Shown here: piece by piece, positions 29,236 to 55,397 of the stretch | Layout: every line of letters begins with the position of its first letter | Position numbering within the stretch: position 1 is the first letter of the stretch | NCBI GenBank assembly: GCA_035457485.1 | Contig: DATIBO010000006.1 | Location: 626,659-690,658, forward strand | Origin: Candidatus Saccharimonadales bacterium | GTDB lineage: Bacteria; Patescibacteriota; Saccharimonadia; Saccharimonadales; EFPC-124 | DNA: 64,000 bases | Direction of reading: 5' to 3' | Notes under the pieces: generated by a model | Told to the model about the DNA's origin: nothing | The model's database searches: none | What the model saw: only the letters and a program-made list of their open reading frames with translations | Position numbers and translations under genes: made by a program

Positions 29236-29338
29236 TTAAGCAATCTTTTACGGAGCGAGCATTAAAAAATAAAATCCGTTCGCTGAGGCTTCGGCCAAGG
29301 CTTGTTTTTACAAAACTATAAAGACAAGAGGTTGCATT

Positions 29339-29602
29339 ATGCAAAAGCGAACATTAAACGAAAAAGTTAATATAACCGGATGGTATTTCCGAAATCGCAA
29401 GGGCTTAAGCACTTACCCAAAGCGCATGGAGTACCAAGGTAGTACCTACACTTTCAATGAATCGGGTTTACAATACCTGATAAAAAAAGGGGAGAGGAGC
29501 TTGAGGATTTTCGATGTCACAGATGGTGCGTCGAAATTTCGGCTAATAAGTGACGAGGCTCAAATAGATTGGACCTTAGTTGCGATAAGCGAAAGTGTTT
29601 AA
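29339..29602 (+). CDS. Hypothetical small protein (87 aa)
   Basis: SD AAGAGG upstream and a terminator immediately downstream. No family recognised. Confidence 0.45.
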   Translation: MQKRTLNEKVNITGWYFRNRKGLSTYPKRMEYQGSTYTFNESGLQYLIKKGERSLRIFDVTDGASKFRLISDEAQIDWTLVAISESV

Positions 29603-29604
29603 AC

Positions 29605-29634
29605 AAAAGACCACTGAGTAATCGGTGGTCTTTT
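29605..29634. terminator. Bidirectional rho-independent terminator
   Basis: AAAAGACCAC tgagtaatcg GTGGTCTTTT. Confidence 0.75.
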
Positions 29635-29671
29635 TAATTAAAGGCTCTCTGGCAAACAGAGCGCTTCTTGT

Positions 29672-30097
29672 TTATCTTGCTATTTTTTTGTAGCTGGCTT
29701 TTCCAAATGCGATGATCGGGTAGCCGATGAAGCCGAATATTCCGATAAGGAAGAATCCAAAGGCGCCATCTTTGCCGAAGGCCTTTGCTACATCAATGGA
29801 GACGATGAAGTGGATAACGATGTTAACCAGTGGGATGAAATAAAGGATTAACCACCATCCTGGTCGATTGGCTACCTCAAGTAAAACCCAGATGTTATAA
29901 AAAGGAACGATCGAAGCCCAGCCAGGTTTGCCAGCTTTCACGAACACCTTCCATACTGAGACAATCATAAAGATAATGAACGCGAGGTAAAAAATCGTTC
30001 CCACTGGGCTGTAGCTTGGAGCTGCATAATACGAGCTATCAAGGTAGCCGTCGTTGTATAAAGTAGTGTCGTAAGTTGATGCTAAAAAGCTTTTCAT
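29672..30097 (-). CDS. Small polytopic membrane protein (DUF5684-like)
   Basis: Start trimmed to ATG 30097 (AAGGAAAATT upstream). ..WASIVPFYNIWVLLEVANRPGWW.. motif. Confidence 0.5.
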   Translation of the reverse strand: MKSFLASTYDTTLYNDGYLDSSYYAAPSYSPVGTIFYLAFIIFMIVSVWKVFVKAGKPGWASIVPFYNIWVLLEVANRPGWWLILYFIPLVNIVIHFIVSIDVAKAFGKDGAFGFFLIGIFGFIGYPIIAFGKASYKKIAR

Positions 30098-30186
30098 AAT
30101 TTTCCTTTTATTATGCTTATGTATTAATACTAAAAGATAAACTCTGCTTTGTAAATAAATTACAACGTTAACTCCTGCTATTTTAT

Positions 30187-30918
30187 TTGACAAACAACCC
30201 CAACTTAGTCAATCATGTGCTTGTGAAAGAAAAACAGCGTAGAACTTTTACCATAATTATTGCAGTTTTAGCTATTTGCCTGGGCCTGTTTTTCAGCAAT
30301 CAGCCTCCGCAAAGTAAGGTTGAGAGCGAACAAATATCAATAAATAGCGAGAATGCGCTGGTAGCTCTAGAAAAACTGCAAGTCAAAGGGCGCGCACCAA
30401 AAACTGATTACTCACGTGATCAGTTTGGTGATGGCTGGGACAGCTTAGATGGATGCGATGTCAGAAATCTAGTTTTAAAGCGTGATCTAACAGAATCTAA
30501 ATTTGATCAAGATGGATGTACTGTTTTGTCAGGGAAGTTACATGATCCGTACTCTGAAAAGCAGATAGACTTTACGAAAGGCGAGGCGACAAGTCAGCTC
30601 GTTCAGATAGACCACGTAGTAGCCTTATCTGATGCGTGGCAAAAAGGCGCCCAGGACTTAAGTGCTCAAAAACGCCAGGAACTTGCTAACGATTCGCTAA
30701 ATTTACTAGCGGTAGATGGTAAATTGAACCAGCAGAAAAGTGATAGCGACGCAGCTAGCTGGCTACCACCCAATAAAAATTATAGGTGCGCTTACGTTGC
30801 CAGGCAGATCGCAGTTAAGACTAAGTACTTACTCTGGGTTACGTCGGCCGAATACACAGCTTTGAAAAATGTTTTACAAGGATGTCCAGATCAGGTTTTG
30901 CCAGTCGAGTCAGGATGA
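30187..30918 (+). CDS. Membrane-anchored extracytoplasmic DUF1524 (His-Me finger/HNH-like) nuclease
   Basis: N-terminal TM. ..QIDHVVALSDAWQKGA.. ..NLLAVDGKLNQQKSDSD.. ..WLPPNKNYRCAYV... Start codon uncertain (TTG 30187). Confidence 0.7.
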   Translation: MTNNPNLVNHVLVKEKQRRTFTIIIAVLAICLGLFFSNQPPQSKVESEQISINSENALVALEKLQVKGRAPKTDYSRDQFGDGWDSLDGCDVRNLVLKRDLTESKFDQDGCTVLSGKLHDPYSEKQIDFTKGEATSQLVQIDHVVALSDAWQKGAQDLSAQKRQELANDSLNLLAVDGKLNQQKSDSDAASWLPPNKNYRCAYVARQIAVKTKYLLWVTSAEYTALKNVLQGCPDQVLPVESG

Positions 30919-32351
30919 AAACAACCACTCATGCTTCATGGCAAATTGCGGCCATGAGCTGGGGAGTAATTTGCGGCGCTGCGCTTTCGTGTTTTGTAAA
31001 CGTCGAAATTAATCTGTTGATCGTGGTTATTGGCATATTGGGTTGTATAGTATGTGTTGCGTTTAGGTTCGTCCTACTGTTGCCATTGGCTTTTGCTGGC
31101 GGCTTGCTTTTAGGAATGGCAGTGAACAACTTTCAATCTAATCAGATTGAAAAATATCAACCTATATACGGAAAACAGGTCTTAGTAACTGGCATTGTAT
31201 CCGAAGATGTTTCCAAGAACGAAAAAGATGAGCAACAGATTAAACTTACCCAAGTATCGGCAGCGGGTCAAAATTTAAGCGGTGTAATTTGGCTAAGTAC
31301 GCGCGATGGCAACTTAATAAAACGTGGTGATTTTATAGCAGCACAAGGCAAACTTGACCACGGATTTGGCAATATTCCGGCCTCAATCTTCAAAGCCAAA
31401 ATTATAAAGGTAGAGCAACCTGTGCCGGGTGACTTAGCGCGCATCGCCCGAGATTGGTTCGCGGATGCAGTTCGCATAGCGATACCATCGCCACAGGTAG
31501 ACCTTGGGTTGGGTTATCTGCTTGGGCAGCAGAATGAGCTTCCACACGACTTGAATGAAAAACTTAAGCTCCTCGGGTTAACACATGTCGTCGTAGCAAG
31601 TGGCTACAATCTTACAATTTTGGTAAGGTTTGCTCGCAAAAGTTTTTTAAATATCTCTAAACGATTGTCGGTGCTAGTAACCTCCGCTATGATAATCGGA
31701 TTTGTTTTAATGACCGGCTTTAGCCCAAGTATGAGTAGAGCTGCAATTGTGACAGGCCTGTGTTTAGCGGCCTGGTATTATGGACGCAATATTCATCCGC
31801 TAGTTTTGCTACCATTTGTAGCCGCAACAACCCTATTATTAAATCCCGGTTCAATTAACGGCGACTTAGGCTGGTACTTATCGTTTGGGTCATTTGCAGG
31901 GGTTATTATTTTAGCACCACTCGTCAATTCGTTCTTTTGGCGCAACAAAGATCCTGGCATTTTACGCGAAATTTTCGTTGGTACTCTGTGCGCCCAGATT
32001 GTAACGTTGCCAATTATCCTGCTTTATTTTGGCCAATATTCACCACTGGCACTTTTTGCGAATGTGATGATTCTACCTCTCATACCCCCCGCGATGCTGT
32101 TTATATTTTTGGCTGGGATCTCAGGAATATTGGTACCAAATTTTGCGGAGATTTTAGGCTTACCGGCATTCTGGATATTAAAATATATGACCAGTATCGT
32201 CGACTGGATAGCAAGCATACCATTCGCAAAAGGTGAGGTACACTTTAATGTCCTCTCGCTGATTTTTAGCTATACAGTTATCGTAATCTTAACTTTATTC
32301 TTATGGCGCGCTACAAAATTCAACTTTTACAAAAGTAGTGTCTTGGAATAG
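30915..32351 (+). CDS. comEC: Competence channel protein ComEC/Rec2, lacking the C-terminal metallo-beta-lactamase domain
   Basis: ..GLTHVVVASGYNLTIL.., N-terminal OB-like region, about 10 TM. The protein ends right after the TM core (478 aa from ATG 30915). ATGA overlap with the nuclease gene. Confidence 0.8.
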   Translation: MKTTTHASWQIAAMSWGVICGAALSCFVNVEINLLIVVIGILGCIVCVAFRFVLLLPLAFAGGLLLGMAVNNFQSNQIEKYQPIYGKQVLVTGIVSEDVSKNEKDEQQIKLTQVSAAGQNLSGVIWLSTRDGNLIKRGDFIAAQGKLDHGFGNIPASIFKAKIIKVEQPVPGDLARIARDWFADAVRIAIPSPQVDLGLGYLLGQQNELPHDLNEKLKLLGLTHVVVASGYNLTILVRFARKSFLNISKRLSVLVTSAMIIGFVLMTGFSPSMSRAAIVTGLCLAAWYYGRNIHPLVLLPFVAATTLLLNPGSINGDLGWYLSFGSFAGVIILAPLVNSFFWRNKDPGILREIFVGTLCAQIVTLPIILLYFGQYSPLALFANVMILPLIPPAMLFIFLAGISGILVPNFAEILGLPAFWILKYMTSIVDWIASIPFAKGEVHFNVLSLIFSYTVIVILTLFLWRATKFNFYKSSVLE

Positions 32352-32440
32352 TTTTCCACAATTTAAAAATTGGCATTGACAGCCGAGGCAACCTTTAACA
32401 AAATACGGCTATCACAAAACTAACCAAAAAGTTTAACGAC

Positions 32441-33919
32441 ATGACCAGAGCTGCCGTAGTATTTTTATTTGTATTTTTAAGTTTGGCTTTAACTGAACCA
32501 GCGACCGCACAATCAGAGCCCAGTCTTTTAATTAGCGAGTTTCAAACTGGTAGCGATAAAGTTGGTGAACGACCCGCGAGCTGCCTAGAAAGCGAATACG
32601 ACGCCGGCAAATTAGAGTTCGTGGAGCTTTATAATCCAAGCGATTACGCGCTTGATCTAACAGGAATAAAATTGGAATTCGTGACCGAGTCTGGTCTCAC
32701 AGTGCGCCACGTGGCTACCTTACAAGGCCAGGTCCAGGCGAAAAGTTTATTTTTAATAACCTACAAATGCTACCTGCAAGATTTGGCGGATATGTTTTTT
32801 AACGGGTCAACTCAAAAGGATATTTTTCCTAAAACCAGTGGTGGATATCTAAGGTTGGTTGATCAAAGTGGGTCACTAATAGATCAAGTTAGTTGGGCTA
32901 AAGCAACCGCAATTAGCGGATGGTGGCACGAGCCAAAAGCGATTAGCCACGACTACTCTATAAACAGGGTTTTTAGCAACAACTCTTTTAGCACCCAAAT
33001 CACACCCACCACACCAAAAGCTGCGTTCGCTCAAAATAATCCTCAGACCGAGCCAGAAGAAGAACCTGAGCCAGAACCATCCCCAGAAACTACAGAGCCG
33101 GAGACAGAAGCTAATAATCTTTGCGATGGTATAGTTTTGAGCGAGATCCTGCCCAACCCCACGGGTGAAGATTCGGGCGCAGAGTTCATTGAAATACACA
33201 ACCCAACAGACAAGCCAATCCATTTACTAGGCTGTGCTCTAAAACTCGAAAACAGCACAAAGCAGTTTAATTTGCCCGATCTTCAAATTGCTCCAGATCA
33301 GTATATAGCTTTTTATAACTCGGAGACAAAACTTTCGTTAACAAACTCAAATAGTGTAACTGTTTGGTTGGTTACACAAACCAGCGAACAATCAGTAAAG
33401 TATGCGGATAACTTGGGTTCGGACATCTCGTGGTCGTTTATTGACGGTGCTTGGAAACAAACGCAAACGCCGACGCCAAATCACCCGAACAAGCTACTAG
33501 TCCTAGCGGAAGCCACAGAGCAACATTTAGCCCAATGCGAACCCGGTAAAATACGTAACCCCGAGACCAATCGCTGCAAAAGCACTCAATCACAACCTGT
33601 AATTACGCCATGCGCTCCTGGACAAGAACGCAACTCGAACACTAACAGATGCAGAACAATTGCGGCCGCCAGCACGCAGCCAAAACCTTGCCCAGAAGGC
33701 CAGGAAAGAAACACGGATACAAACCGCTGTCGTAAGATTTTAGGAGCCAGCACAAACTTACCCAGCGTTAAAGACATTCCTTCGGTGCCATCACAAAATT
33801 CAACAGTGTTTTGGGTAATTGGTGCACTATTTGCCGCGGGCGTAGTTTACTGCATTTATGAGTGGAGGCAAACGGTTGCAAGAGCATTAAATAATCTTAA
33901 AACAAGGCTAAGTAAATAA
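32441..33919 (+). CDS. Secreted, C-terminally anchored protein with two lamin-tail (LTD) domains and three Cys-bracketed repeats
   Basis: Signal peptide. LTD signatures ..LLISEF..EFVELYNPSDYALDLTG.. and ..VLSEILPNP..AEFIEIHNPTDKPIHL... Three C-x2-G-x2-RN-x2-TNRC repeats, then a C-terminal TM. Confidence 0.75.
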   Translation: MTRAAVVFLFVFLSLALTEPATAQSEPSLLISEFQTGSDKVGERPASCLESEYDAGKLEFVELYNPSDYALDLTGIKLEFVTESGLTVRHVATLQGQVQAKSLFLITYKCYLQDLADMFFNGSTQKDIFPKTSGGYLRLVDQSGSLIDQVSWAKATAISGWWHEPKAISHDYSINRVFSNNSFSTQITPTTPKAAFAQNNPQTEPEEEPEPEPSPETTEPETEANNLCDGIVLSEILPNPTGEDSGAEFIEIHNPTDKPIHLLGCALKLENSTKQFNLPDLQIAPDQYIAFYNSETKLSLTNSNSVTVWLVTQTSEQSVKYADNLGSDISWSFIDGAWKQTQTPTPNHPNKLLVLAEATEQHLAQCEPGKIRNPETNRCKSTQSQPVITPCAPGQERNSNTNRCRTIAAASTQPKPCPEGQERNTDTNRCRKILGASTNLPSVKDIPSVPSQNSTVFWVIGALFAAGVVYCIYEWRQTVARALNNLKTRLSK

Positions 33920-33953
33920 TGTTGGTGGTAACCGGCAAGCCTCAGGTACCCAC

Positions 33954-35858
33954 TTAAGTAGCTCTAAAGGCCATAACTTTATAAACCTCAGATGGAGGAT
34001 CGCAACCCAAAATACCTAAAACATTCACCCACGAAATTGCCAAGGTGTTAGCTGCACTCACTCTGGCTCCAATCATTCCACAACCGTTAGTTAACGAGGG
34101 TTTGTTTACAATAACCGTGTCGTCTGTGGTCAATCCATTTACGGTAAATGTTTGCTCGCTAGTGGATGCTGCTGGAACGTTTGCAGGATTAATAGTCGGC
34201 GCATAGTACCTAATCTGTGTAATCGCAGTTCCCGAAGCACCCACAGTCAACCCAGAAGAGACTTCTGCGTTTGTCGTCTGTGTTCTATTGGCAGAAGTGT
34301 CTACATTAAACACGTTAGTGCTGGATGAGTTTTGAACAGTGAAAGCGTTGGTTCCGTTGGTATCGTTCCTGAAAATCGTATTATCACCAGTAAATACTTG
34401 AGAATCTCGACTAAGAAGCGCAACGTTACTACTCAGGCGTGCATCCGCTAAAGTTCCGCTAGAAATATTGCTCGCATTTAAGCTAGTTAATGCGGATCCA
34501 TTGAGGGCGGGGAGCAAACCAGATCCATCGAGCTGAACAAGTTGTCCGGCGGCGTTAAAGCTATTTCCCTGCAATGTCACATTAGTGCTCAACCTTGCGT
34601 CGCCAACAGTACCCGTTGCCAAACTAGAAGCATTAAGATTAGTAAGGTTCTCACCGGAGATTACAGGCAAAACCCCGCCCGCGGTGGTTTGAACCAATTG
34701 GCTCGTGCCGTTAAAAGTATTGCCCTGCGTAGTAACATTTGAGCTCAGCCTAGAATCATTCAAGGTACCACTGCTAATATTACTAGCATTCAATCCCGTT
34801 AGACTACTGCCAACCCCAACAAAATTACCGGCGATTACTGTTCCGCTAACATTTATGTGACCAGTTTGAGGGGTGCCGGGCGTAACGGCTTGCAGATCAA
34901 CACAGTCAGTACACCCAACAGGTAGGTTAGTAAGATTGGCGCCCGAAACCGCAGGTAATGCACCTGAGCCATCTAGCTGCACAAGCTGATTGACACCATT
35001 AAATGTGTTGCCTTGAACGGTCACGGTTGAGTTTAATCTTAAATTAGACAAAGTTCCTGTGGTGATCTGAGATGCATTAATACTGGTCAAGTTTGCGCCC
35101 GAAAGAACTGGCAATTCGCCGCTACCATTTGTTTGCACCAGCTGACTATTGCCGTTGAAGTTGTTGCCCTGTAATGTAACACTCGAACTAAGCAATCCAT
35201 TGGCGACAGTACCTACTAAATTACCCGCGCTCAAAGAAGTTAAGCTTGAACCGTTTCCTTGAAAGCTGCTAGCAACTACTCCATTTACATAAACATAGCC
35301 AGATTCCTGAGTGGTGGGCGAAACTTGGAGCGAGACACATGAGCCATTGGGACAAGAGGCTACGCCGTTTGTTCCATCTTGGCCAGCGGGTCCTTGCGCG
35401 CCAGCTACACCCTGAACACCTTGGATTCCTTGAGGTCCTTGAATTCCGGCAATTCCATCGGTTCCATCGGTTCCATCCAACCCGTCATCTCCATCCTCGC
35501 CATCTACTCCATTGATGCCATCCAGCCCTGGTACTCCCTGTGAACCCGCCGGGCCGATCGCTAAAGTTGCATCTTGATTACTGTTGCCCAGTTCCTGAAC
35601 TTGCAAAGTCGGATCATCCAACGTGGTCGTATCTAGCTGGGCAACCTGTTCGATACTTGCAGGATTGTTCGAGACTTGCTCTGCCAGATTTTTATAAACG
35701 CTAAAAAGCACATCCATACTGGTAGATTTGCGGTAAACATCAAACGTCAGTAGCAAAATTGCCACCACTACTGCCGCACTGAGCAAGCCAAAAAGAACGT
35801 TTTTACGCCTTTTTGCCGCTGATTTGCTACTGATATTGGATTCGCTCGTTGAGCGCAT
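33954..35858 (-). CDS. Membrane-anchored collagen-like fibre protein with tail-fibre-type repeats
   Basis: N-terminal TM. About 20 G-X-Y triplets (..GPAGSQGVPGLDGINGVDGEDGDDGLDGTDGTDG..). Four ..QGNxFNGxxQLVQ..SG.LP..SG.NLT.LNAS.. repeats and a C-terminal globular domain. Confidence 0.75.
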   Translation of the reverse strand: MRSTSESNISSKSAAKRRKNVLFGLLSAAVVVAILLLTFDVYRKSTSMDVLFSVYKNLAEQVSNNPASIEQVAQLDTTTLDDPTLQVQELGNSNQDATLAIGPAGSQGVPGLDGINGVDGEDGDDGLDGTDGTDGIAGIQGPQGIQGVQGVAGAQGPAGQDGTNGVASCPNGSCVSLQVSPTTQESGYVYVNGVVASSFQGNGSSLTSLSAGNLVGTVANGLLSSSVTLQGNNFNGNSQLVQTNGSGELPVLSGANLTSINASQITTGTLSNLRLNSTVTVQGNTFNGVNQLVQLDGSGALPAVSGANLTNLPVGCTDCVDLQAVTPGTPQTGHINVSGTVIAGNFVGVGSSLTGLNASNISSGTLNDSRLSSNVTTQGNTFNGTSQLVQTTAGGVLPVISGENLTNLNASSLATGTVGDARLSTNVTLQGNSFNAAGQLVQLDGSGLLPALNGSALTSLNASNISSGTLADARLSSNVALLSRDSQVFTGDNTIFRNDTNGTNAFTVQNSSSTNVFNVDTSANRTQTTNAEVSSGLTVGASGTAITQIRYYAPTINPANVPAASTSEQTFTVNGLTTDDTVIVNKPSLTNGCGMIGARVSAANTLAISWVNVLGILGCDPPSEVYKVMAFRAT

Positions 35859-35921: not shown

Positions 35922-36941
35922 CTATTTTTCGTCAGATTCTGGCTCTAAAATCTTTTTACTTTTAATCTCGTAACGCCTACCCGTCATACTAGACTCAACG
36001 TAGTCATCGTTTAATAGATTCACAAATTTATTAAGGTCTTTAACATCCATGATGATAATGGCGCCCGAATCATCAGTCATAAGCTCAACACCGAGTTCTT
36101 CGGCGTGATTCAAGAGATCTTCTTGCTTCACAGACTGCGGATCAATTTTTTGCAATTTGTTGATCAGCGTTTTACTAGCTTTAACCATGGTCTGAAGATC
36201 AAGCTCGTCTGCAAAGCTTAAAGTGAAGTTGGCGTTAATTTCATCGACTTTCTTTTCGGCAATCGCATTCTTTTTAGCATTATAATTAAATAAACGCTCA
36301 AGCTTGCTTTGATTAAAAACATAGACGTCCTGCTCGAGTAATAGAATCTGGTTATCAGCCGGAATCCGCAACGCGGCGCCCGGATCAAGTGCTTCAAAAG
36401 TTTGTGCACCGATAGTCCAACCGCCAATGCCTTTAACAACATTAGCCGCGGAGAGCGACTTAATTACGTAAAAAGATTTCTCCATTTCGGGATGACTGCA
36501 ACGTGCGATCAAGCCGCGCATACGACGCAAGTCGTGATCGTCTTCGTTGAACATTTCCATTTCATGTTCTTGGCCACCAAGCCAGCGCATCGCCTCAACC
36601 ATCTTTTCGATATTATCGAGCTGAGTTCTTTGTAAAACGTTATCTTCCTCTTCTGCCTCTTCGAAACCGCGCACGACTAAGCCTTCGCCTGCGCCAGTCA
36701 TAACAAACTCTAAAATATTGTCTAAGAGTAGGGGAATCAACTGTTTGCCTACCTCAGGTTTATGCTGAGTCCGATACAAAACATTGTTTTTACTAAGCAA
36801 GAACAACTCAATTTTTAGGTTGTCTTTGTACATAAAAAGGTTGTTAGCCCAGTTAAATATATCTGTCTGCTCACGCTCCACGGGTGCAGCATTTTCAGTA
36901 GTTTCGGTTGTCGCGCTCGGCGTGATAGATGTTTGTTCCAT
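35922..36941 (-). CDS. Hypothetical cytoplasmic protein (339 aa); possible DUF4868/KwaB-like, unverified
   Basis: Clean ORF with GAAGGG SD. The family suggestion rests only on length and overall pattern recalled from memory. No KwaA-like membrane partner is adjacent. Confidence 0.55.
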   Translation of the reverse strand: MEQTSITPSATTETTENAAPVEREQTDIFNWANNLFMYKDNLKIELFLLSKNNVLYRTQHKPEVGKQLIPLLLDNILEFVMTGAGEGLVVRGFEEAEEEDNVLQRTQLDNIEKMVEAMRWLGGQEHEMEMFNEDDHDLRRMRGLIARCSHPEMEKSFYVIKSLSAANVVKGIGGWTIGAQTFEALDPGAALRIPADNQILLLEQDVYVFNQSKLERLFNYNAKKNAIAEKKVDEINANFTLSFADELDLQTMVKASKTLINKLQKIDPQSVKQEDLLNHAEELGVELMTDDSGAIIIMDVKDLNKFVNLLNDDYVESSMTGRRYEIKSKKILEPESDEK

Positions 36942-37092: not shown

Positions 37093-38913
37093 ATGATTGT
37101 AAGGAACCTGCTAAAAAGAGTGGGCGTTATTGTGGTTGCAGTAACTATAGTGGCAAGCAATTTTGCCTTCGAGACTCCAGTCAGGGCGCTTGCAACTACT
37201 GATAGCGTAGACGAAATCCACTTTTCTTATGGCGAAAATGCAGGCGAAGTGATTTTTAACTGGCGCGGATCTGAAACCGCCTTTTTTTATGGTCTAGACT
37301 CCAACTACGGTCAACAAGCCACAGCCTATCAATCGGCAATTAGCCCATGGGACACAACCGGTCCATTCTACGAAGTTAAAATTAGCGGCCTAAATGACAA
37401 CACCGAGTATCATTATAAAATCGGCGAAAGCGGCCTAGACCACGCCTTTAAAACACGGTCAACTGGTGATTTTAGCTGGGTGGATGTGGGCGACACAGTG
37501 AGCTCTCACTGCTTTAGCTATATGCCAGCCATGCACCAACTAATTACTAATCAGCAACCAAATGTCGTTACGCATGGTGGTGATATATCGGTTCTGGATG
37601 GTTGTGGCGTAGAAGCAGTTAACTCATACTACACCGATCAAGAAGTTTGGTCGCATTTTGCGGCTTTTCAACCCGCTTGGGGTAACCATGAGTACGCCGA
37701 GGCCAAGCCCGAGGCACCTGCAGGAACTCCACGCGATAGCCTCGCAAACTACAAAGGCCGAAGTTACATAACAAACGCACAAACAGTACCTAACGACACC
37801 GAAACAAAGACTAGCAACCCGGGTTGTGGTGGCGATCAAGGTAGTGTCGTGAACACCTGTCTAGGCGAAGACTGGGGCTGGTTTGACAGTGGCAAGGTAA
37901 GATTTATTTCGTACCCCGAGCCGTGGCCGGGCGCGATCGAAGATTGGAAAGTCAAAGCCGATATACTAATGCAGCAAGCTCAAAGCGATGCAAACGTCGA
38001 CTTCATAATCACTTACGGGCACCGCCCTCCTTACACAAACTCAACCGAGGGCCCAAACCTAACAGTTTGTGCAGCCATTGATTACTTGGCCCAAAAATAC
38101 AGTCCGCGCGCCGACAATCAAGGCGGGAAATATATCTTAAATGTTGGGCACCATGCGCACGGCTTAGAAGCTTACGGCAAAGTTAACGGCCTAATGCACG
38201 TGTTGAGTGCAGCTGGCGGTCAAGGCTTTACACCAACCGCTAACACAACGCCTCCATCCGAATTCCGTGTGCGCAGGTTAGGAATTTTAGCCGGCAATTA
38301 TAACGCCCAAAATGGAACATTAGGAATTAGGTTTGTGTGCGGACCAGATTTTCTATGGATCAAGGATGTGTGCGAGTATGGCAGTACAATTTGGAGCATG
38401 CAATTCACGAAATCCACAGCCCCAGTACCAACCCCCACAGAATGGGTTAGCAATGTTGGCGTAGAAACCAACCTAACAGGCTGGACGGGTAAATACGGCA
38501 GTAGCAACTACGTAAATATTGACCGTTCCACTGAGCAAGCTCACAGCGGCAGCGCGTCCGTAAAAGTTTCGGCCAGCACTGGCGCAAACAATTTATCCAG
38601 TGGCTTTAACGACAGCCCTAAAATAATTGCCAGCACTACCGCAAACATCGGATACACTCAAAGCGTATGGATAAAACCCGGGTACGTTGGCCAAAAAATC
38701 ACATTACGTCTACGTGAGTGGCGACCAAACTGGGCCATGGCAGGTGAGGTGAGCCAAACTATTACTGCAAGTAGTACTGATTGGCAGCGGGTTAGCCAGA
38801 CATATACCACAAAAGAGTCCGGCAATAGCTTAGCTTACATTGTTTACGCCAACGCAATCTCTGCAGGGCAATACTTTTACGTCGACGATCTTTCCTTAAC
38901 TTCGCCAAATTAA
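37093..38913 (+). CDS. Secreted purple-acid-phosphatase-like metallophosphoesterase with C-terminal carbohydrate-binding (CBM4/9-like) module
   Basis: Signal/TM. ..GDTVSSH.., ..GGDIS.., ..GNHEY.., ..GHRPPY.., ..GHHAHG... C-terminal ..AHSGSASVKV.. ..YFYVDDLSL... Confidence 0.7.
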   Translation: MIVRNLLKRVGVIVVAVTIVASNFAFETPVRALATTDSVDEIHFSYGENAGEVIFNWRGSETAFFYGLDSNYGQQATAYQSAISPWDTTGPFYEVKISGLNDNTEYHYKIGESGLDHAFKTRSTGDFSWVDVGDTVSSHCFSYMPAMHQLITNQQPNVVTHGGDISVLDGCGVEAVNSYYTDQEVWSHFAAFQPAWGNHEYAEAKPEAPAGTPRDSLANYKGRSYITNAQTVPNDTETKTSNPGCGGDQGSVVNTCLGEDWGWFDSGKVRFISYPEPWPGAIEDWKVKADILMQQAQSDANVDFIITYGHRPPYTNSTEGPNLTVCAAIDYLAQKYSPRADNQGGKYILNVGHHAHGLEAYGKVNGLMHVLSAAGGQGFTPTANTTPPSEFRVRRLGILAGNYNAQNGTLGIRFVCGPDFLWIKDVCEYGSTIWSMQFTKSTAPVPTPTEWVSNVGVETNLTGWTGKYGSSNYVNIDRSTEQAHSGSASVKVSASTGANNLSSGFNDSPKIIASTTANIGYTQSVWIKPGYVGQKITLRLREWRPNWAMAGEVSQTITASSTDWQRVSQTYTTKESGNSLAYIVYANAISAGQYFYVDDLSLTSPN

Positions 38914-41406: not shown

Positions 41407-42669
41407 ATGACGGTTTGGTTTGCAGTGACGTTTTTTGCCTATCTAGAAACTCAGTCGGTTTTTGCAACCGCAATTGTATCAGGAATTTACCTTGTAGTTA
41501 CTGCGCTGTCAGGCTTTTGGCTTGGCAGCCTAGTTGACCACCACAAAAAGAAGCAAATTATGCTGGCATCGAGCTTGGTTTCGTTAGTTTTCTACATGAT
41601 AGCAACAGTTGTGTTCGCGCTTGCACCAGAAGGAACTTTTAAGCACATCGAAAGTTTTTGGTTGTGGGCGCTGATAATCTCACTTTTGCTTGGCGTAATG
41701 GCAGGCAACTTGCGAACAATAGCCTTGCCAACTTTGGTAACAATTTTAATTCCTGCAGATCGACGCGATAAAGCCAACGGATTAGTCGGCGCATCGACAG
41801 GCATTTCTTTTTTGGTAGTTTCGGTAATAAGCGGTTTTATGATTGGGTTTTGGGGTTTATGGTCGGTCTTGGCACTTTCGATCACCCTGACGATCGCCGC
41901 TTTTATTCATTTGCTAAGCGTTAAAATCCCCGAAAAAGGCGTTGCGCACCTAATTGGAGATGGTGAGTTGCCAAGCAAAAAGGTCGACATAAAAGGCACA
42001 TTTAGAGTAGTCGTTGCGATACCTGGCTTAATGGCACTTATCATTTTCAGCACTTTCAACAACTTTTTAGGCGGCGTATTCATGCCACTAATGGACGCTT
42101 ACGGACTTTCTATGGTTTCTGTTCAGGTTTGGGGATTATTATGGGGAGCGATTAGCGTGGCCTTTATCGCTGGCGGAATTTTAGTTGCTAAAAAGGGCCT
42201 AGGTAAAAATCCGCTGCGAACTTTACTTTTGGCAAACATAGCAATTTGGGCTATCTCGAGCGTGTTTACAATTCAGCCGTCTATTATTTTGCTTTCGGCA
42301 GGAATGTTTGTGTACTTGCTGTTAGCTCCGGTCATTGAAGCGTCGGAACAAACGCTCTTGCAACGTGTAGTTCCACTCGAACGCCAGGGTCGTGTATTTG
42401 GTTTCGCCCAAAGCATCGAACAATCGGCGTCACCATTAACCGCATTTTTAATCGGTCCGATCGCACAGTTCATTTTTATTCCGTTCATGACTGTCGGTGC
42501 CGGCGTAGAGCTCATTGGTGGATGGTTTGGATCTGGTCCAGCACGCGGAATAGCCTTAGTGTTTTGCGTAACTGGACTGATTGGTTTAGTGATTTCGCTT
42601 TTGGCGATGACGTCAAAGTACTACCGACAGTTGTCTAGTGCGTACGAAAAAGCCGGGGAAACTAAATAA
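41407..42669 (+). CDS. MFS transporter (EntS/MFS_3-like); the N-terminus appears frameshifted
   Basis: 12-TM-type profile. ..GSLVDHHKKKQIM.. matches the loop 2-3 motif. The likely true N-terminus MQSQKSFYQVLINVIIANI is encoded from ATG 41343 in another frame. Confidence 0.65.
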   Translation: MTVWFAVTFFAYLETQSVFATAIVSGIYLVVTALSGFWLGSLVDHHKKKQIMLASSLVSLVFYMIATVVFALAPEGTFKHIESFWLWALIISLLLGVMAGNLRTIALPTLVTILIPADRRDKANGLVGASTGISFLVVSVISGFMIGFWGLWSVLALSITLTIAAFIHLLSVKIPEKGVAHLIGDGELPSKKVDIKGTFRVVVAIPGLMALIIFSTFNNFLGGVFMPLMDAYGLSMVSVQVWGLLWGAISVAFIAGGILVAKKGLGKNPLRTLLLANIAIWAISSVFTIQPSIILLSAGMFVYLLLAPVIEASEQTLLQRVVPLERQGRVFGFAQSIEQSASPLTAFLIGPIAQFIFIPFMTVGAGVELIGGWFGSGPARGIALVFCVTGLIGLVISLLAMTSKYYRQLSSAYEKAGETK

Positions 42670-43480: not shown

Positions 43481-44584
43481 TTAGGGTTGAATCCAGAGGT
43501 CGCCGGTAGTCGGATTTGATGGCTGAGACGCCCCATAGCTTACTTTGCGATCAACGTTTGGCGCCGAAATTACACCGCTAGCACTAACCGATGCTAAAAC
43601 CGTGTTATCAGACTGCGTCCATTCAGTAAGATTAGCGCTTTGAGTATTGGATCGTTGCTGTACTCTAAACGGAACTGAGTTATCTGCGGCTGCACGCGAC
43701 CTAAGTTCGCCCTTTTCGTTATGGTAACCCGTACGAATGCCGTTGTAATAAAAAGCCATAGAGTCAGGAGTTGAGCCCGATGCTGTGTAGTTAAGATCAA
43801 TACGCGCAAATCCATTAGTTGTAGCATTGCTTGTAACTGTTCCTGCGTTTTCGCCCGCAAGCAACATCACGCTTGAAGTATCAGCCTTTAGATTCAATGC
43901 TGTTTGGGTAGCGGTGCTAATCGGCTTATTGGCATCACTTGTGTTGTCGACATTTCCTAGTCCAACGTCGCTCTTAGTTAGAGCTAAGTCGGTCTTAAGT
44001 TGAGCAGGCGTGCGACTAGCCCAAGCGCCAGCCTTTCGCTGAATGACATCGTCGTTAGTCGGAGTAAGCGCCGCTATATCAGTAAGGTCAGAGTCGAGCG
44101 GTTGTTTTCCGGCAAGATCAGTTGTTAAGCTGGCGACCTTACTTTGAGCAATATTCGCACTACCCGAGATATTAGTATCTGTAATCGTAGAGTTGGCAAT
44201 TTTTGCGCCAGTTACAGCGCCCGCCGAGATGAGAGGAGCGGCTGCCGTCGTTCCTACTCCGCCCAAGTCGCCGGCTAGTCTAACCAGACCATTTGTACTG
44301 GTTGTGGCATCAGGAGCTCCGCTACTTGCAACGTTATCTACGTAGTCTTTGTTTGCGGCCTGAGTAGCGGTGGTTGGAGTTGGGACAATAGGGGACGAAG
44401 AAAAAGTTTTAACACCGGCGACAGTTTCGCTACCTGTATTATGAACAACTGCACTATCATCGGCCTTATTGGAGACTGCGGAAGGCCGCAAAGTTCCATC
44501 AGAATTGAGCGACACCAAAAGAAAGTCGTTTAAAACACTTCCCCACGTACCGTTATCTGAACCTGGAGTAGGTAGTCTACTCAT
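43481..44584 (-). CDS. Phage tail-fibre-like protein
   Basis: ..LPTPGSDNGTWGSVLNDFL.. and ..VAGVKTFSSSPIVPTPTTATQAANKDYVDN.. are tail-fibre-type motifs. ATG 44584 is preferred over TTG 44596. Confidence 0.6.
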   Translation of the reverse strand: MSRLPTPGSDNGTWGSVLNDFLLVSLNSDGTLRPSAVSNKADDSAVVHNTGSETVAGVKTFSSSPIVPTPTTATQAANKDYVDNVASSGAPDATTSTNGLVRLAGDLGGVGTTAAAPLISAGAVTGAKIANSTITDTNISGSANIAQSKVASLTTDLAGKQPLDSDLTDIAALTPTNDDVIQRKAGAWASRTPAQLKTDLALTKSDVGLGNVDNTSDANKPISTATQTALNLKADTSSVMLLAGENAGTVTSNATTNGFARIDLNYTASGSTPDSMAFYYNGIRTGYHNEKGELRSRAAADNSVPFRVQQRSNTQSANLTEWTQSDNTVLASVSASGVISAPNVDRKVSYGASQPSNPTTGDLWIQP

Positions 44585-44693
44585 TATTGAAACCAACTAA
44601 GCACATACCCCTATTCTACAGTACTAATGCTTATAAGTTAAAGCTTTTTTCAACTTTGGCGCATACAAAGTAATGCGTTAAACTAAACTTAGT

Positions 44694-46176: not shown

Positions 46177-46268
46177 CAACATTTACATTAAGTAAAATTA
46201 TGCTATAGTTAGTCGGTCATGGAGGAGCGCATGTTTTACGTGCGCCTGACAATCGAAATGGAGTGCAG

Positions 46269-47135
46269 ATGCCTCTCATCGAGGACATCGGGAACTGGAT
46301 CCAGGGAGCAGCGGCCACGTGCCTCGACTTCCTGGGCAAGATCCCGCGCGCTGTGTTCGGCGACGCCGTGGATTCGGAGTACGGCCGATGGGCTGCGACG
46401 CTCGTGTTCATCGCGATCGTCTCTTACGCCATCACCGGCATCCGATCGGTGTCGACGCTGTTCGTCGCCAAGTTCGACCTGGGGTTCAGCCAGGCGAAGA
46501 TCGACGACTACAACGACAAGCGCGGCGAGAACGACGAGAAGTACGTGTTCGACTGGGGCAAGGCGCGACGACAGCAGTCGCGCAGCCTGTCGTTCCTGTG
46601 GCCGGTCGGTCTGATCGCGCTGGGCAGCATGTACTACTGGGTGCGCTACGACCTCACCAGCAAGGGCTACTTCCTGCTGGCGATGGCGTGGTTCGCCTTC
46701 TACCTGCTGGTCATCAAGCCGTGGTGGATCAACACCAAGCTCCGCAGCGACCGCAACCTGGTCGACTCGGGCGTGATCACCCGCGACAAGGCGCCGTACT
46801 ACCACTTCAGCACCCGGCAGGGCATCCAGCACTACATGGGCTGGGGCCTTTACGGGCGCAAGAAGCAGCGCAGCCCGATCTTCATCGGCGGGCTCCGCTA
46901 CGTGCGATGGATCCTGGCGCCGTTCGCCTGGGTCCGCAAGCGCATGATCACGCCGTTCCTGTGGATCTGCGTCCTGGCAGCGGCCTGGATGATCACCGCT
47001 CCGCTCATCGTGTTCTGGCTGGGAACCCGTTTCGACCGGCGCCGCTACTGGCTCCGGCCGCCGTGGGCCCCGGACTACGCGATCGAACCGACGATCCACG
47101 AGTTCGTCGCCACAAGCGACAGCTCGAGCAGCTGA
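46269..47135 (+). CDS. GC-rich islet D ORF, hypothetical 4-TM membrane protein
   Basis: ATG 46269 with GGAG 5 nt upstream (the ORF track uses GTG 46263). Nearly all codons end in G/C. TM segments ..WAATLVFIAIVSYAITGI.., ..LSFLWPVGLIALGSMYYWV.., ..GYFLLAMAWFAFYLLVI.., ..FLWICVLAAAWMITAPLIVFWL... Three other long ORFs here are shadows. Confidence 0.6.
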   Translation: MPLIEDIGNWIQGAAATCLDFLGKIPRAVFGDAVDSEYGRWAATLVFIAIVSYAITGIRSVSTLFVAKFDLGFSQAKIDDYNDKRGENDEKYVFDWGKARRQQSRSLSFLWPVGLIALGSMYYWVRYDLTSKGYFLLAMAWFAFYLLVIKPWWINTKLRSDRNLVDSGVITRDKAPYYHFSTRQGIQHYMGWGLYGRKKQRSPIFIGGLRYVRWILAPFAWVRKRMITPFLWICVLAAAWMITAPLIVFWLGTRFDRRRYWLRPPWAPDYAIEPTIHEFVATSDSSSS

Positions 47136-47154
47136 TCACACTCCTCCAACAACC

Positions 47155-47190
47155 CGTGGCGGCCGAGGCACCAAGCCCTCGGCCGCCACG
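47155..47190 (+). terminator. GC-rich hairpin after the islet-D ORF (no U-tract)
   Basis: GTGGCGGCCGAGG caccaagc CCTCGGCCGCCAC: 13-14 bp, perfect. Confidence 0.5.
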
Positions 47191-47256
47191 CGGCTTCAAA
47201 GAAATTATCATTACACGCGTTTCTTTTTACGAAAGCCGATCTACTCGCTCTGCACT

Positions 47257-50391: not shown

Positions 50392-51210
50392 ATGAGTAGT
50401 CTGAATTTTAAAACTTTAAAACCGACGACTTCGTTAAGTAATTTTATAGACTGCATAAGAATTGCCGAGTTTACTGGCGATAATCCTAGCCCACAAATAA
50501 ATATTTGTCCTAACGGGCTACCTGGGATCGTATTTCATGCAAATTCGATCGAATCACTGCAGACCAGTCAAGGCGTACTAACTGACTTGCCAGAACTTTT
50601 TTTATACGGTCAAGTAACCGAGCTTAGCAAAATGACCTTTAAAACAAGTCACTTTACGACTTTTCAGGTTTTACTAAAACCATTTAGTCTAAAATCACTA
50701 TTTAAAATCAATGCCGCAAAGCTCACAAACAATTTTTTAGACTTAAAAAAGTTTAATAATTCACCGATTGTGCAATTGCAAAGTGCAAAAAATAATGATC
50801 AAGTTATAAAAATTTTGACTGATTTTTTGCAAAACCTCAGTCAAAGCGTTCAACAGGACAGCGAAATTTCGCAAATCACCGATTTTATCGATAGCAACTT
50901 AAGCCAAGTTTCAGTAGCGGATCTAACAGATACGTTTAATATTTCTGAGCGTCAACTACAAAAAAAGTTCCAACAGTTTATTGGATTGCCACCTGTTCAA
51001 TACATTAGGATTCGCAGGTTCAATAGAGCCATGCAAATGATGGACTCAGGAGAATATGAACTGTTGTCGGATATTGCCTTCGCTTTGGACTTTCATGATC
51101 AATCCCATTTTATTCGAGACATAAAAACCTTTTCGGGGAAAACGCCCAAAAGCATTACGCAAAAAACCACCGAGTTTTATCACGACCAAGTCGGCGCTAC
51201 ATTTTTATAG
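50392..51210 (+). CDS. AraC-family transcriptional regulator
   Basis: C-terminal double HTH ..ISERQLQKKFQQFIGLPPVQYIRIRRFNRA.. ..FHDQSHFIRDIKTFSGKTP... Confidence 0.8.
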   Translation: MSSLNFKTLKPTTSLSNFIDCIRIAEFTGDNPSPQINICPNGLPGIVFHANSIESLQTSQGVLTDLPELFLYGQVTELSKMTFKTSHFTTFQVLLKPFSLKSLFKINAAKLTNNFLDLKKFNNSPIVQLQSAKNNDQVIKILTDFLQNLSQSVQQDSEISQITDFIDSNLSQVSVADLTDTFNISERQLQKKFQQFIGLPPVQYIRIRRFNRAMQMMDSGEYELLSDIAFALDFHDQSHFIRDIKTFSGKTPKSITQKTTEFYHDQVGATFL

Positions 51211-51278
51211 GCGGGTTTTTACAATTATTTTTTACTTTGCAATGATATTATTTGTCTGTCAAATTAAGCAGGACACTT

Positions 51279-52241
51279 ATGATATTAGGGAAACTTAAAA
51301 AAATCAGCCTTAAAAAATGGCTATTGTTTAGCGGAATAGGTCTAGTCACTTTGTTTGTTCTTTTTATGTTTGCAGGAATCTGGGGTGCGTCTGGCCAGAT
51401 TTTGTCACCACAATTTTTAGGACTCAAAAAAGATCTAGCATTTTGTCCAACTGACGCTCAAGTAATTTGGGGTGAGAACTGCGGCAATCTGCGCCAAACA
51501 AAACAGTTTGCTTTTAGCGAAGTCAACATTGTGACCGGTGATTATAGCTTGCCTGGCTGGCTGATAAAAACCAACGACAACAGTAAAGGGCAGGCGAAAG
51601 GCGCAATCTTATTAGTTCACAGCGGCGGCAGCGATCGACGCGAAGACACGAAACATATTGGATTCTTTTTAAACCAAGGTTTGGATGTTTTAACATTTGA
51701 CATGAGCTGCCACGGCGAAGCACCCTGCCCAGGCCAAGGTTTAACCTACGGATACCGCGAATCGCAAGATATTGCAGCCGCATATAATCTTTTGGCCGAA
51801 AATCACGAAAAGGTCTACGTAATGGGATCGTCGATGGGCGCAACGTCCGTTTTGGCTGCATTGCCGCAACTTGACAACGTGAGCGGCGTAATCGCTGAAA
51901 ATCCAATGTTTAGTTTTGAGCGCTTAATTAGCGAGGCTCCAGAGGCGAAGTCAATGCCAAAGTGGTTTAGCCAGATGTTAATAAATTTGGTCAAGCTACG
52001 TGGAGGATTTGACGACAGCCGAACTCCAATCACGGGCTTATCGTCGCGATCAGATGTACCAATTTTGTTTATGCACAGCAAGCAGGATAAAATCGTAAAC
52101 TACACCCAAACCCAAGAGCTTGCCAACACTTACCAAGGACCAAAAACTATTTGGATCACCGAAACTGGTAACCATTCCGAACTTTGGAATGCTGATCAAA
52201 AAGCCTTTGAAAACACTTTAGAAAATTTTATAAAACTGTAG
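51279..52241 (+). CDS. Alpha/beta hydrolase with N-terminal TM anchor
   Basis: ..VMGSSMGA.. nucleophile elbow, ..LFMHSKQDKIV.., ..GNHSE... ATG 51279 is preferred over TTG 51252. Confidence 0.65.
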   Translation: MILGKLKKISLKKWLLFSGIGLVTLFVLFMFAGIWGASGQILSPQFLGLKKDLAFCPTDAQVIWGENCGNLRQTKQFAFSEVNIVTGDYSLPGWLIKTNDNSKGQAKGAILLVHSGGSDRREDTKHIGFFLNQGLDVLTFDMSCHGEAPCPGQGLTYGYRESQDIAAAYNLLAENHEKVYVMGSSMGATSVLAALPQLDNVSGVIAENPMFSFERLISEAPEAKSMPKWFSQMLINLVKLRGGFDDSRTPITGLSSRSDVPILFMHSKQDKIVNYTQTQELANTYQGPKTIWITETGNHSELWNADQKAFENTLENFIKL

Positions 52242-52262
52242 AATAAGCTTAAGGAGATTAAT

Positions 52263-52823
52263 ATGCGTAAAATTGTAATGTTCAACCGGGTAACCTTAGA
52301 TGGATTTTTTGCCGGGACCCACGACGAAATTGACTGGTTTGTTCAAGACCCAGAGGTAGACAAAACTCTGCACGACAAAATGAACCCCGACACAGTACTT
52401 TTTGGCGGTCGAACTTTTGAGATGTTTGAAGATTTTTGGCCGCATGTTGCAATGGACCCAAATGCTCACCCTGGCCAAAAAATGATGGCCGACGAACTAA
52501 CGAACATGACTAAAATTGTGTTTTCTAAAAGCTTAAAAAATACCGATTGGGCAAACACCGAGATTCATCACGACAATTTGATCGAAGAAATTAAAAAGCT
52601 TAAAAAAGGTGACGGTGCAGATATTGTGATCTTTGGAAGTGGAACAATCGTACAGCAACTTGCCGAGCAGGGCTTGATTGACGAATACTTTTTTGTAGTA
52701 ACCCTAGTAGTTTTAGGTGCTGGCAAACTTTTGTTCGACGGAGTAAAGAGGTCAGGTATGAAACTATTAGACACTAAAAGCTTTAATTCGGGCAACGTTT
52801 TGTTGCATTATAAAAAGGCCTAG
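52263..52823 (+). CDS. Dihydrofolate-reductase-family protein (RibD_C type)
   Basis: ..FNRVTLDGFFAG.., ..IVIFGSGTIVQQL... Confidence 0.6.
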   Translation: MRKIVMFNRVTLDGFFAGTHDEIDWFVQDPEVDKTLHDKMNPDTVLFGGRTFEMFEDFWPHVAMDPNAHPGQKMMADELTNMTKIVFSKSLKNTDWANTEIHHDNLIEEIKKLKKGDGADIVIFGSGTIVQQLAEQGLIDEYFFVVTLVVLGAGKLLFDGVKRSGMKLLDTKSFNSGNVLLHYKKA

Positions 52824-52824
52824 G

Positions 52825-53277
52825 ATGCGTAATGTTATAAAAACTCAGGTCGCAGTACCGCAAGCTCAATTGGCAAAATTATTGGCAGATCCGCAGAATA
52901 ACCCAAAATGGATGGTTGATTTAGCAAGCTTTAAGCCAGGTAGTGGAAAACCTGGCGAGATTGGATCCACGTACAAATTGGCTTTCAAAAGCGGTGATAG
53001 GATTATGGAATTTGACGCTAAAGTCACAAAACGAGACCTACCAAACGAGCTGAAGGTTGAAATGAAAAATCCGACAGTTGATCTTGATGCAGTTGCGCGT
53101 TTTACTAAAATCTCGGATTCAATCACCGAATATACATCGGACCAAACATTTACCTTCAAAGGCCTTATGGGTAAAATTTTCGGAATGCTCGGTAGCTCAT
53201 CTATAAAAGAGCAACAAAAACGCGACATGTTGGGTTTTAAAGAATTTGCCGAAAAAACCTACAAGAGGAGTCAATAG
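52825..53277 (+). CDS. SRPBCC-superfamily protein
   Basis: 150 aa. Size and pattern are typical of polyketide-cyclase/START-like proteins. Weak call. Confidence 0.45.
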   Translation: MRNVIKTQVAVPQAQLAKLLADPQNNPKWMVDLASFKPGSGKPGEIGSTYKLAFKSGDRIMEFDAKVTKRDLPNELKVEMKNPTVDLDAVARFTKISDSITEYTSDQTFTFKGLMGKIFGMLGSSSIKEQQKRDMLGFKEFAEKTYKRSQ

Positions 53278-53293
53278 CCCAAGGTTCGTGTGT

Positions 53294-53761
53294 TTATACG
53301 TAAATCAGCTTGATAAGAGTGGAAAATAAAATAACAAATACCGCAACCTCTACAATAACGCCCCATGGCCGCTCGCACCACTGAATTGCGCGATGAAACT
53401 TAACATGGAAAACACGTAAAATTCCATGAGCTTGCCTATCTTGTTTTTCGTAAGCGAGCCAGTTATAAATACCGACTGCATCTGGCGATGCAGCGATTAG
53501 CCCCGTTAGCAATGCGAACCACTCGGCGTTGGCGACAATTAGACCTACCACGATTAAGGTTGTAAGCAGTGTAAGTGTGGCCACCACGAACGACATTTTA
53601 TGTTTTAGCGCCTCGCCGTAACCCTTTTGGCCTGCGTAGCCAAAGTGGGGAAGAGCATCCATAAAAAAGTGCGAGGCGAAAGCCAGCACGACTGCGACAA
53701 AAGGGTTGGTGATGGTCAAGCCTATAATAGCACCAGCTAAAACGTGATTAGTAATTGTCAT
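53294..53761 (-). CDS. Membrane protein (YdjM/metal-dependent-hydrolase-like?)
   Basis: ..THVLAGAIIG.. and ..HFFMDALPHF.. in a 4-TM protein. Weak family call. Confidence 0.4.
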   Translation of the reverse strand: MTITNHVLAGAIIGLTITNPFVAVVLAFASHFFMDALPHFGYAGQKGYGEALKHKMSFVVATLTLLTTLIVVGLIVANAEWFALLTGLIAASPDAVGIYNWLAYEKQDRQAHGILRVFHVKFHRAIQWCERPWGVIVEVAVFVILFSTLIKLIYV

Positions 53762-53773
53762 AGATTAATAATA

Positions 53774-54247
53774 CTAGATCAGCGTTAAAAGTAGCACCGC
53801 AAGCGAAACTGGCATTCCAAAATCCCAAACTAAAATAAAGGTATTATTTGGAGCGAAGTTCTTTTTAGCAAAAATTTCACGCAAATGATTTAGACCAGCT
53901 AAAAACAAAAAGGTGATTATTGGGATGGAAACTGCGATCCACGCCTGCAAACCGTGATACGTAGCGTAAAAACAGGCCAAACCTAAACCCAGCGACACGA
54001 AAGAGATTTCGTATTGAAAGCCGTTAGTTTTCCAGCCAATTGAGCTAGCTGTACGTTTTGCAAAAAACGAGTGCATTACAAACGAACTTGCAAAAACAAA
54101 ACCAGCAAAATATAACATCCAGCGTATGTAGCCTTCGGCAATAGTTTCGTTTGCAATTGCTCCAGGAGCATCTGATCCGCTAAGCGCCATAATCCATGCC
54201 AGCACAAAAACGCCCGGCAGAATCAAACCAAAAATTTTATCACTCAT
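53774..54247 (-). CDS. Polytopic membrane protein, unknown function
   Basis: 157 aa, about 5 TM. Confidence 0.45.
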   Translation of the reverse strand: MSDKIFGLILPGVFVLAWIMALSGSDAPGAIANETIAEGYIRWMLYFAGFVFASSFVMHSFFAKRTASSIGWKTNGFQYEISFVSLGLGLACFYATYHGLQAWIAVSIPIITFLFLAGLNHLREIFAKKNFAPNNTFILVWDFGMPVSLAVLLLTLI

Positions 54248-54835: not shown

Positions 54836-54837
54836 TG

Positions 54838-55392: not shown

Positions 55393-55397
55393 CAATA

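Follow-up and report, generated by a model that had tools for sequence, protein, structure and literature searches.

The window analyzed here, a stretch of 64,000 nt from the genome of a Candidatus Saccharimonadales bacterium (TM7/Saccharibacteria), contains three co-directional genes that encode, in this order, a DUF1524 nuclease with a predicted membrane anchor, a short form of the channel protein ComEC that lacks the metallo-beta-lactamase (MBL) domain, and a surface protein with two lamin-tail domains (LTD). An earlier note on the same sequence had presented them as a self-contained module for the capture and uptake of DNA. We find that the trio is a three-gene envelope block conserved in a clade of Saccharimonadia, and not a self-contained uptake machine. 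Within this block a functional link between the nuclease and ComEC is plausible, and the idea that the nuclease acts in trans is a reasonable hypothesis. The reading that we put forward, tentatively, is that of an entry nuclease comparable to pneumococcal EndA but from a different His-Me family, which would be paired with an MBL-less ComEC, the LTD protein having some other role. Each component belongs to a known kind and already has an annotation. What appears to be unreported, in the literature that we searched, is an operon that pairs a DUF1524 nuclease with an MBL-less ComEC; there, DUF1524 is treated only in the context of GmrSD and no work ties it to ComEC.

The block is best seen in the comparison of species. 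We gathered 80 Saccharimonadia loci around ComEC, one genome per species, using tblastn and the clustering of open reading frames (ORFs). In 20 of these loci the gene just before comEC is that of the nuclease, and in most of them the LTD gene comes right after comEC; the nuclease-ComEC junction overlaps or abuts (an overlap or a gap of 0-2 bp) in about 11 of the 20. Six look-ups that began from nuclease homologues on long contigs found the nuclease-ComEC pair in every case, with an LTD or LTD-like gene also present in five of them and with entirely different flanks in each. Conservation of the trio therefore reaches far outside this genome, and both of its flanks vary. In the window itself the flanks are unrelated to it: on one side lies a divergent gene for a membrane protein with DUF5684, on the other a KwaB-like gene and, convergent with the trio, a gene for a collagen-repeat protein. 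The majority order in the sample is a different one, ComEC-[pilin]-YebC-LTD-RuvC-RuvA-RuvB, with no nuclease nearby; it is the order followed by the cultivated Southlakia epibionticum (ComEC-YebC-LTD-RuvCAB). Across both arrangements, the LTD gene is downstream of ComEC in about 60 of the 80 loci.

The same loci gave some observations on the neighborhood of ComEC. Genes for type IV pilins (N_methyl motif) adjoin it in about 11 of the 80 loci, and in those lineages their linkage bears more directly on competence than that of the LTD gene. In one subclade, the gene immediately before the nuclease-ComEC-LTD block encodes a small protein (about 145 aa) that has a LexA DNA-binding domain and could be a regulator of the block (Table 1). 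Finally, in one locus (L082, 7127-8050) the ComEC beside the nuclease was called at 307 aa and is followed by an ORF of 244 aa, which may correspond to a split or frameshifted ComEC or to an assembly error.

In the window, the three ORFs have the coordinates and the domains that the earlier note had given them (Table 1), as judged from ORF calls, Pfam, and NCBIfam, and each of the three proteins is 100% identical to an NCBI protein of Candidatus Saccharimonadales, all three being encoded on a single contig of 889 kb. Searches for the domains named at the time matched GmrSD_C, DUF4131 with Competence, and LTD, and did not match Lactamase_B. The ATGA in which the nuclease stop and the ComEC start overlap is present as claimed. 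This start of ComEC is backed by the NCBI protein (100% identity and coverage, 478 aa) and agrees with the conserved N-terminal residues in the alignment of homologues. The start of the nuclease is uncertain: the ORF begins at a TTG (30187), GTG codons at 30217 and 30223 are alternatives, and the NCBI model uses the latter, which gives a protein of 231 aa. The TTG at 30187 doubles as the -35 hexamer of a promoter-like match (TTGACA-N18-AATCAT), and a very short leader is possible (30187-30223). A scan for promoters and terminators over 29300-34300 returned 7 and 6 matches, respectively, when 8.5 and 6.0 were expected from shuffled sequences, i.e., no excess.

The nuclease matches the Pfam family GmrSD_C/DUF1524 (PF07510, E=5e-23, residues 93-227), and the identical NCBI entry is named 'HNH endonuclease family protein'. 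We checked its catalytic residues on an alignment of 30 sequences, with homologues at 54-72% identity, and they are intact: D142, H143, N181, K184, and D188 are invariant, and N172 is conserved in at least 90% of the sequences. Together they form the D-H...N...N signature of the His-Me finger, in the motif QIDHVVAL...NLLAVDG..N. The predicted secondary structure, with short strands around the catalytic histidine and a helix from residue 178, is the one expected of a His-Me core. The membrane anchoring proposed for this protein is borne out by prediction, with a single N-terminal transmembrane helix preceded by a basic KEKQRR motif and a topology that places the N-terminus inside and the catalytic domain outside. 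The basic motif and the hydrophobic stretch are kept in 28 of the 30 sequences, and the AlphaFold2 (AF2) model (predicted local distance difference test, pLDDT, 87) has a helix over residues 12-37. In addition, the C-terminal domain carries four invariant cysteines (C90, C111, C201, and C233). The basic motif, the lone hydrophobic helix, and the invariant cysteines therefore point to a type II signal anchor and a disulfide-stabilized catalytic domain outside the cytoplasm. The protein is thus very likely, from its sequence, an extracytoplasmic DNase, and probably a non-specific one of the His-Me finger type.

The absence of the MBL domain from ComEC, and its end right after the channel core, are genuine. 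The protein has the two-domain DUF4131 plus Competence form ('DC'), with about 9 hydrophobic segments in its hydropathy profile and no Pfam match to Lactamase_B. Its stop codon lies 13 residues past the Competence domain, the C-terminus is conserved, and the next gene starts only 89 bp downstream. It passes the N-terminal ComEC model TIGR00360 (61.7, for a cut-off of 36.5) and falls far below the full-length ComEC_Rec2 equivalog TIGR00361 (38, for a cut-off of 190), as expected because the C-terminal domain is missing. All of the 120 best homologues measure 420-517 aa and none has Lactamase_B, so that no MBL-containing ComEC came to light among them. The complete genome of the cultivated relative lists a single MBL-fold hydrolase, which has 211 aa and is unrelated. 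Across bacteria, Lactamase_B is found in only 52% of ComEC-type proteins and the DUF4131 plus Competence profile is dominant in whole phyla (PMC6299819). The 'DC' ComECs of Cyanobacteria, Bacteroidetes, Alphaproteobacteria, and S. epibionticum (SEML1_0777) have the same architecture as the protein in the window, and only the upstream nuclease gene sets the clade of the window apart from them. Hence, the MBL-less ComEC is a lineage-wide state, and one that is very common in bacteria generally.

This changes how the missing domain should be regarded. The earlier note had treated its loss as a peculiarity of this genome that called for compensation, a view that did not hold up: the short form is the norm of the lineage and, in Southlakia, it supports transformation. 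More precisely, SEML1_0777 (482 aa) is dispensable for growth and natural transformation needs it (PMC10633639). The data on function and essentiality are from this relative; what was observed directly here is the gene content, the domains, the catalytic residues, the synteny, and the topology as predicted. By analogy, the ComEC of the window would import single-stranded DNA for natural transformation, as an ordinary channel typical of its lineage. How MBL-less ComECs dispose of the second strand has been described as an open question (PMC8579336). About half of ComECs lack a nuclease domain, and a nuclease gene beside such a ComEC is a concrete candidate for this task.

A parallel for the nuclease is EndA of Streptococcus pneumoniae, which is also a small nuclease of the His-Me superfamily, with an N-terminal anchor, located outside the cytoplasmic membrane, and the only known separate nuclease that degrades a strand (PMC8579336). 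EndA turns duplex DNA into single strands for ComEC, and the nuclease of the window may, if the analogy holds, do the same. NucM of Moraxella catarrhalis is another competence-linked entry nuclease of the His-Me type (PMC6384898). The parallel does not extend to the family: EndA belongs to PF01223 and has a DRGH motif, whereas the nuclease of the window, with its D-H...N...N residues, has neither an Endonuclease_NS (PF01223) match in Pfam nor a DRGH motif. The genetic setting also differs, as the nuclease gene of the window is operonic with an MBL-less comEC whereas the pneumococcal ComEC retains its MBL domain.

The mechanism that we propose on these grounds places the membrane-tethered nuclease next to ComEC, in the role of an entry nuclease. 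Type IV pili would deliver duplex DNA, which the nuclease would nick or cut on arrival; one strand would enter the channel, and the nuclease would degrade the strand that is not transported, which is the job of the MBL domain in three-domain ComECs and of EndA in pneumococcus. Co-transcription with comEC, possibly with translational coupling, would keep the two proteins together. A bolder and more doubtful claim is that stand-alone membrane-anchored DUF1524 nucleases are the strand-degrading entry nucleases of MBL-less ComECs, the two forming a functional pair in Saccharibacteria that would be operonic in one clade and unlinked elsewhere. If true, the removal of the non-transforming strand would have a second known solution besides pneumococcal EndA, and the large DUF1524 family would have its first assigned function outside GmrSD restriction. 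Transformation assays and gene deletions are already available in this lineage.

The LTD protein matches its earlier description as a secreted, C-terminally anchored protein with two LTD. The signal segment and a transmembrane helix at residues 454-472 were recovered, Pfam matched LTD (PF00932) in two stretches (E=1.5e-20), and the AF2 model (pLDDT 83) matched the Ig folds of lamins A/C, B1, and B2 with a probability of 1.0 and target-normalized TM scores of 0.55-0.67. The protein also has a weak match to the N-terminus of ExeM. In the alignment, the whole architecture (signal peptide, two LTD, cysteine repeats, transmembrane helix, and YEWR tail) is kept family-wide. Family members carry 1-6 copies of the motif CxxGQERNPxTNRCR, which has a weak Pfam match to TNFR_nem, followed by the transmembrane helix and the conserved YEWR. 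The homologue of S. epibionticum, SEML1_0775, is likewise encoded downstream of comEC and has two LTD, TNFR-like cysteine repeats, and a C-terminal transmembrane helix. The difference lies in the gene order, since the LTD gene of the window comes directly after comEC whereas S. epibionticum and most relatives have yebC in between and ruvC after.

The role of dedicated surface DNA receptor, which had been suggested for this protein, is poorly supported. The syntenic homologue SEML1_0775 was classified as class II essential by transposon sequencing (Tn-seq), in a species where comEC is non-essential (PMC10633639), and its key role is therefore independent of ComEC. The ectodomain is net acidic (-20 overall), and neither Pfam nor NCBIfam revealed a helix-hairpin-helix (HhH) domain, as present in receptors of the ComEA type, or any other DNA-binding family. 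ExeM has a nuclease domain fused to its LTD, whereas the LTD protein of the window has no fused nuclease. Even in ExeM, removal of the LTD leaves DNA degradation largely intact, and the role of bacterial LTD has been described as unresolved (PMC6085458). The main role of the protein is probably independent of ComEC and exerted in the envelope or at the host interface, and its linkage to comEC may reflect inherited synteny (ComEC-YebC-LTD-RuvCAB). This case is a caution that a conserved neighborhood of comEC is no proof of a role in DNA uptake.

The pairing of the nuclease with ComEC also has evidence against it. In the other approximately 70% of the sampled Saccharimonadia the nuclease is away from comEC, and in S. 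epibionticum, the one species with genetic tests, the neighbors of the DUF1524 gene (SEML1_0519) are a NUDIX gene and an M1 peptidase gene, one on each side. The loci where nuclease and ComEC are linked, that of the window included, make up essentially one clade in a neighbor-joining tree of ComEC, and a single event in evolution may therefore explain the adjacency. These compact genomes commonly have short gaps and overlaps. In the window, 7 of the 26 co-directional neighbor pairs overlap or abut, so the 4-bp overlap between nuclease and ComEC is nothing special, and in other loci the LTD gene is equally tight against ruvC, a gene of unrelated function. What exceeds chance is the gene order kept across species, not the overlap. 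As for the fold, the best matches of the nuclease model in the PDB are Vvn and the endonuclease I of Vibrio cholerae (probability 0.92-0.99), and an independent ECOD assignment of the Southlakia homologue gives the same fold (1oup). However, the likeness is weak (E=8e-3, TM score of about 0.4, range about 0.36-0.44), Pfam gives no match to Endonuclease_1 (PF04231), and a sequence search of the PDB returned only matches at chance level. The endonuclease I family also argues in the other direction, as its soluble periplasmic or secreted members antagonize transformation (PMC5714182). Lastly, the literature searched holds no biochemical or genetic test of a stand-alone DUF1524 protein.

The main rival to the entry nuclease is a surface DNase for nutrition or attack on the host, which would turn DNA into fragments, nucleotides, and phosphate independently of ComEC, the adjacency being historical. 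We regard this as a real possibility, if a somewhat unlikely one. It accounts for the features of an extracytoplasmic non-specific nuclease, for the lack of linkage to comEC in most of the class, and for a spacing that is uninformative in these genomes, and it has precedents in Dns and Xds of Vibrio and in ExeM of Shewanella. Saccharibacteria lack de novo nucleotide synthesis (PMC10633639), and the window encodes a cluster for the conversion of dCTP/dCMP to dTTP and a secreted-looking metallophosphoesterase (37093-38913). The presence of the former, reported earlier at 522-3716, was confirmed (DHFR, dCTP deaminase, ThyA, dCMP deaminase, and Tmk). It is harder to reconcile a purely historical adjacency with a three-gene order kept in many species while both flanks change. 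Moreover, SEML1_0519 is dispensable in the co-culture of S. epibionticum (PMC10633639), whereas the sole route to nucleotides would probably be indispensable, unless it is redundant. The endonuclease I relatives suggest instead a barrier nuclease, akin to Vvn or Dns, that destroys incoming DNA as a brake or filter co-expressed with ComEC. These enzymes (Vvn, Dns/EndA of V. cholerae, and EndoI of Escherichia coli) are extracytoplasmic, disulfide-containing, sequence-independent His-Me nucleases and the closest solved folds, and the family lowers transformation rates. We find this explanation very improbable: an operon of a channel with its own antagonist is hard to rationalize, the structural likeness is weak, and the Pfam family differs. 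We also rejected a GmrSD-type anti-phage restriction enzyme in a small defense neighborhood, which is effectively refuted. The nuclease shares the DUF1524 (GmrSD_C) domain with the type IV restriction enzymes GmrSD and BrxU, and a KwaB-like gene lies 5 kb downstream. However, GmrSD_C stands alone in the Pfam search, without the DUF262 (GmrS) NTPase/ParB-like domain, and PADLOC matched neither the nuclease, nor the LTD protein, nor their neighbors except the KwaB-like gene, so that we do not take it for an enzyme of this type. The N-terminal signal anchor and the invariant cysteines also place it outside the cytoplasm, and its conserved partner is ComEC, not defense genes.

The full model of the earlier note, with the LTD protein as receptor, the nuclease in place of the MBL domain, and a ComEC that imports DNA mainly as nucleotides, strikes us as improbable. 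The conservation of the trio as a block, the LTD gene found so often downstream of ComEC, the pilin genes that adjoin ComEC in about 11 loci, and the fusion of LTD to extracellular nucleases such as ExeM can all be cited in its favor, as can the absence of an annotated ComEA in the genome tables of Southlakia, which leaves the idea of an LTD receptor a small probability. Against it stand the essentiality of the LTD homologue where comEC is dispensable, the acidic ectodomain, the degradation of DNA by ExeM without its LTD, and the usual position of the LTD gene, which most genomes have within yebC-ruvCAB. The part of the claim that concerns self-containment fails in the window: a search of its 64 kb for genes of ComEA, ComF/ComFC, DprA, pilins or pili, and MBL proteins found none. 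The part that concerns DNA scavenging is not supported either, as the Tn-seq study found that the com genes are unneeded for fitness and its authors concluded that the cells can do without the com machinery for their supply of nucleotides (PMC10633639). This dispensability argues against an obligatory scavenging of DNA.

Table 1. Features of the nuclease-ComEC-LTD block (window positions), with two genes adjoining the block or ComEC in the loci surveyed (positions within each locus, where given).
Feature	Position	Strand	Evidence or remark
DUF1524 (GmrSD_C) nuclease of the His-Me finger type, predicted to be membrane-anchored, 243 aa	30187..30918	+	ORF, Pfam, AF2
N-terminal signal-anchor transmembrane helix of nuclease, residues 20-38	30244..30300	+	Hydropathy 2.21 over 19 residues
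Nuclease catalytic core: D142-H143 (30610-30615), N172, N181 (30727-29)	30610..30729	+	Alignment
Nuclease K184 and D188, just downstream of catalytic core	to 30750	+	Alignment
ATGA junction, nuclease stop/ComEC start	30915-30918	.	Sequence read-out
ComEC/Rec2, two-domain 'DC' form, 478 aa	30915..32351	+	Pfam, NCBIfam
ComEC OB-fold DUF4131 (PF13567), residues 33-147	31011-31355	+	Pfam, 34.0 bits (gathering score 31.6)
ComEC Competence channel (PF03772), residues 202-465	31518-32309	+	Pfam, E=1.5e-40, model positions 2-268 of 270
Surface-anchored LTD protein, 492 aa	32441..33919	+	Pfam, AF2, hydropathy
LTD protein signal peptide	32441-32512	+	Hydropathy
LTD1	~32522-32995	+	Pfam; followed by acidic Pro/Glu linker
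LTD2	~33122-33475	+	Pfam
Three CxxGxxRNxxTNRC repeats	33536-33733	+	Sequence
LTD protein transmembrane helix, residues 454-472	33800-33856	+	Hydropathy; followed by basic cytoplasmic tail with YEWR motif
Pilin next to ComEC, downstream	L008, L017, L021, L026, L033, L043, L049, L055, L067		
Pilin next to ComEC, upstream	L031, L066		
LexA-domain protein	L083 2901-3341; L084 3542-3976		Cluster c23, also in L040, L045, L046, L063, L077

The rest of the window holds a few other features. The metallophosphoesterase mentioned above (+) is a purple-acid-phosphatase-like protein of 606 aa, encoded 3 kb from the trio; nucleotides or phosphodiesters could be its substrates if it is secreted. The KwaB-like gene (35922-36941, -), related to the Kiwa defense system, was recognized by Pfam, by NCBIfam below its cut-off, and by PADLOC, and no KwaA-like membrane partner is evident near it. 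The next gene on that strand is that of the collagen-repeat protein (33954-35858, -), which has 634 aa and long Asn/Gly-rich repeats. Further on, the product of 43481-44596 (-) combines a phage lower-baseplate N-terminal domain (BppL_N) with DUF5907 repeats and resembles a tail fiber or receptor-binding protein; no other phage genes were recognized nearby. The clearest of the GC-rich islets, for which the earlier note had seen a possible route in DNA uptake, is a sharp one of about 1 kb; it (46200-47200, 60-67% GC for 42-45% in its flanks) has long ORFs in three frames, none of which has a Pfam match, and gave no blastn match in a plasmid collection. Finally, the region 50392-62768 looks accessory and has, for a reduced genome, an unusual wealth of small-molecule functions, with AraC and TetR regulators, two major facilitator superfamily (MFS) transporters, a short-chain dehydrogenase/reductase (SDR), alpha/beta hydrolases, and two extra RibD_C/DHFR-like paralogues; a third MFS transporter is encoded at 41407-42669.

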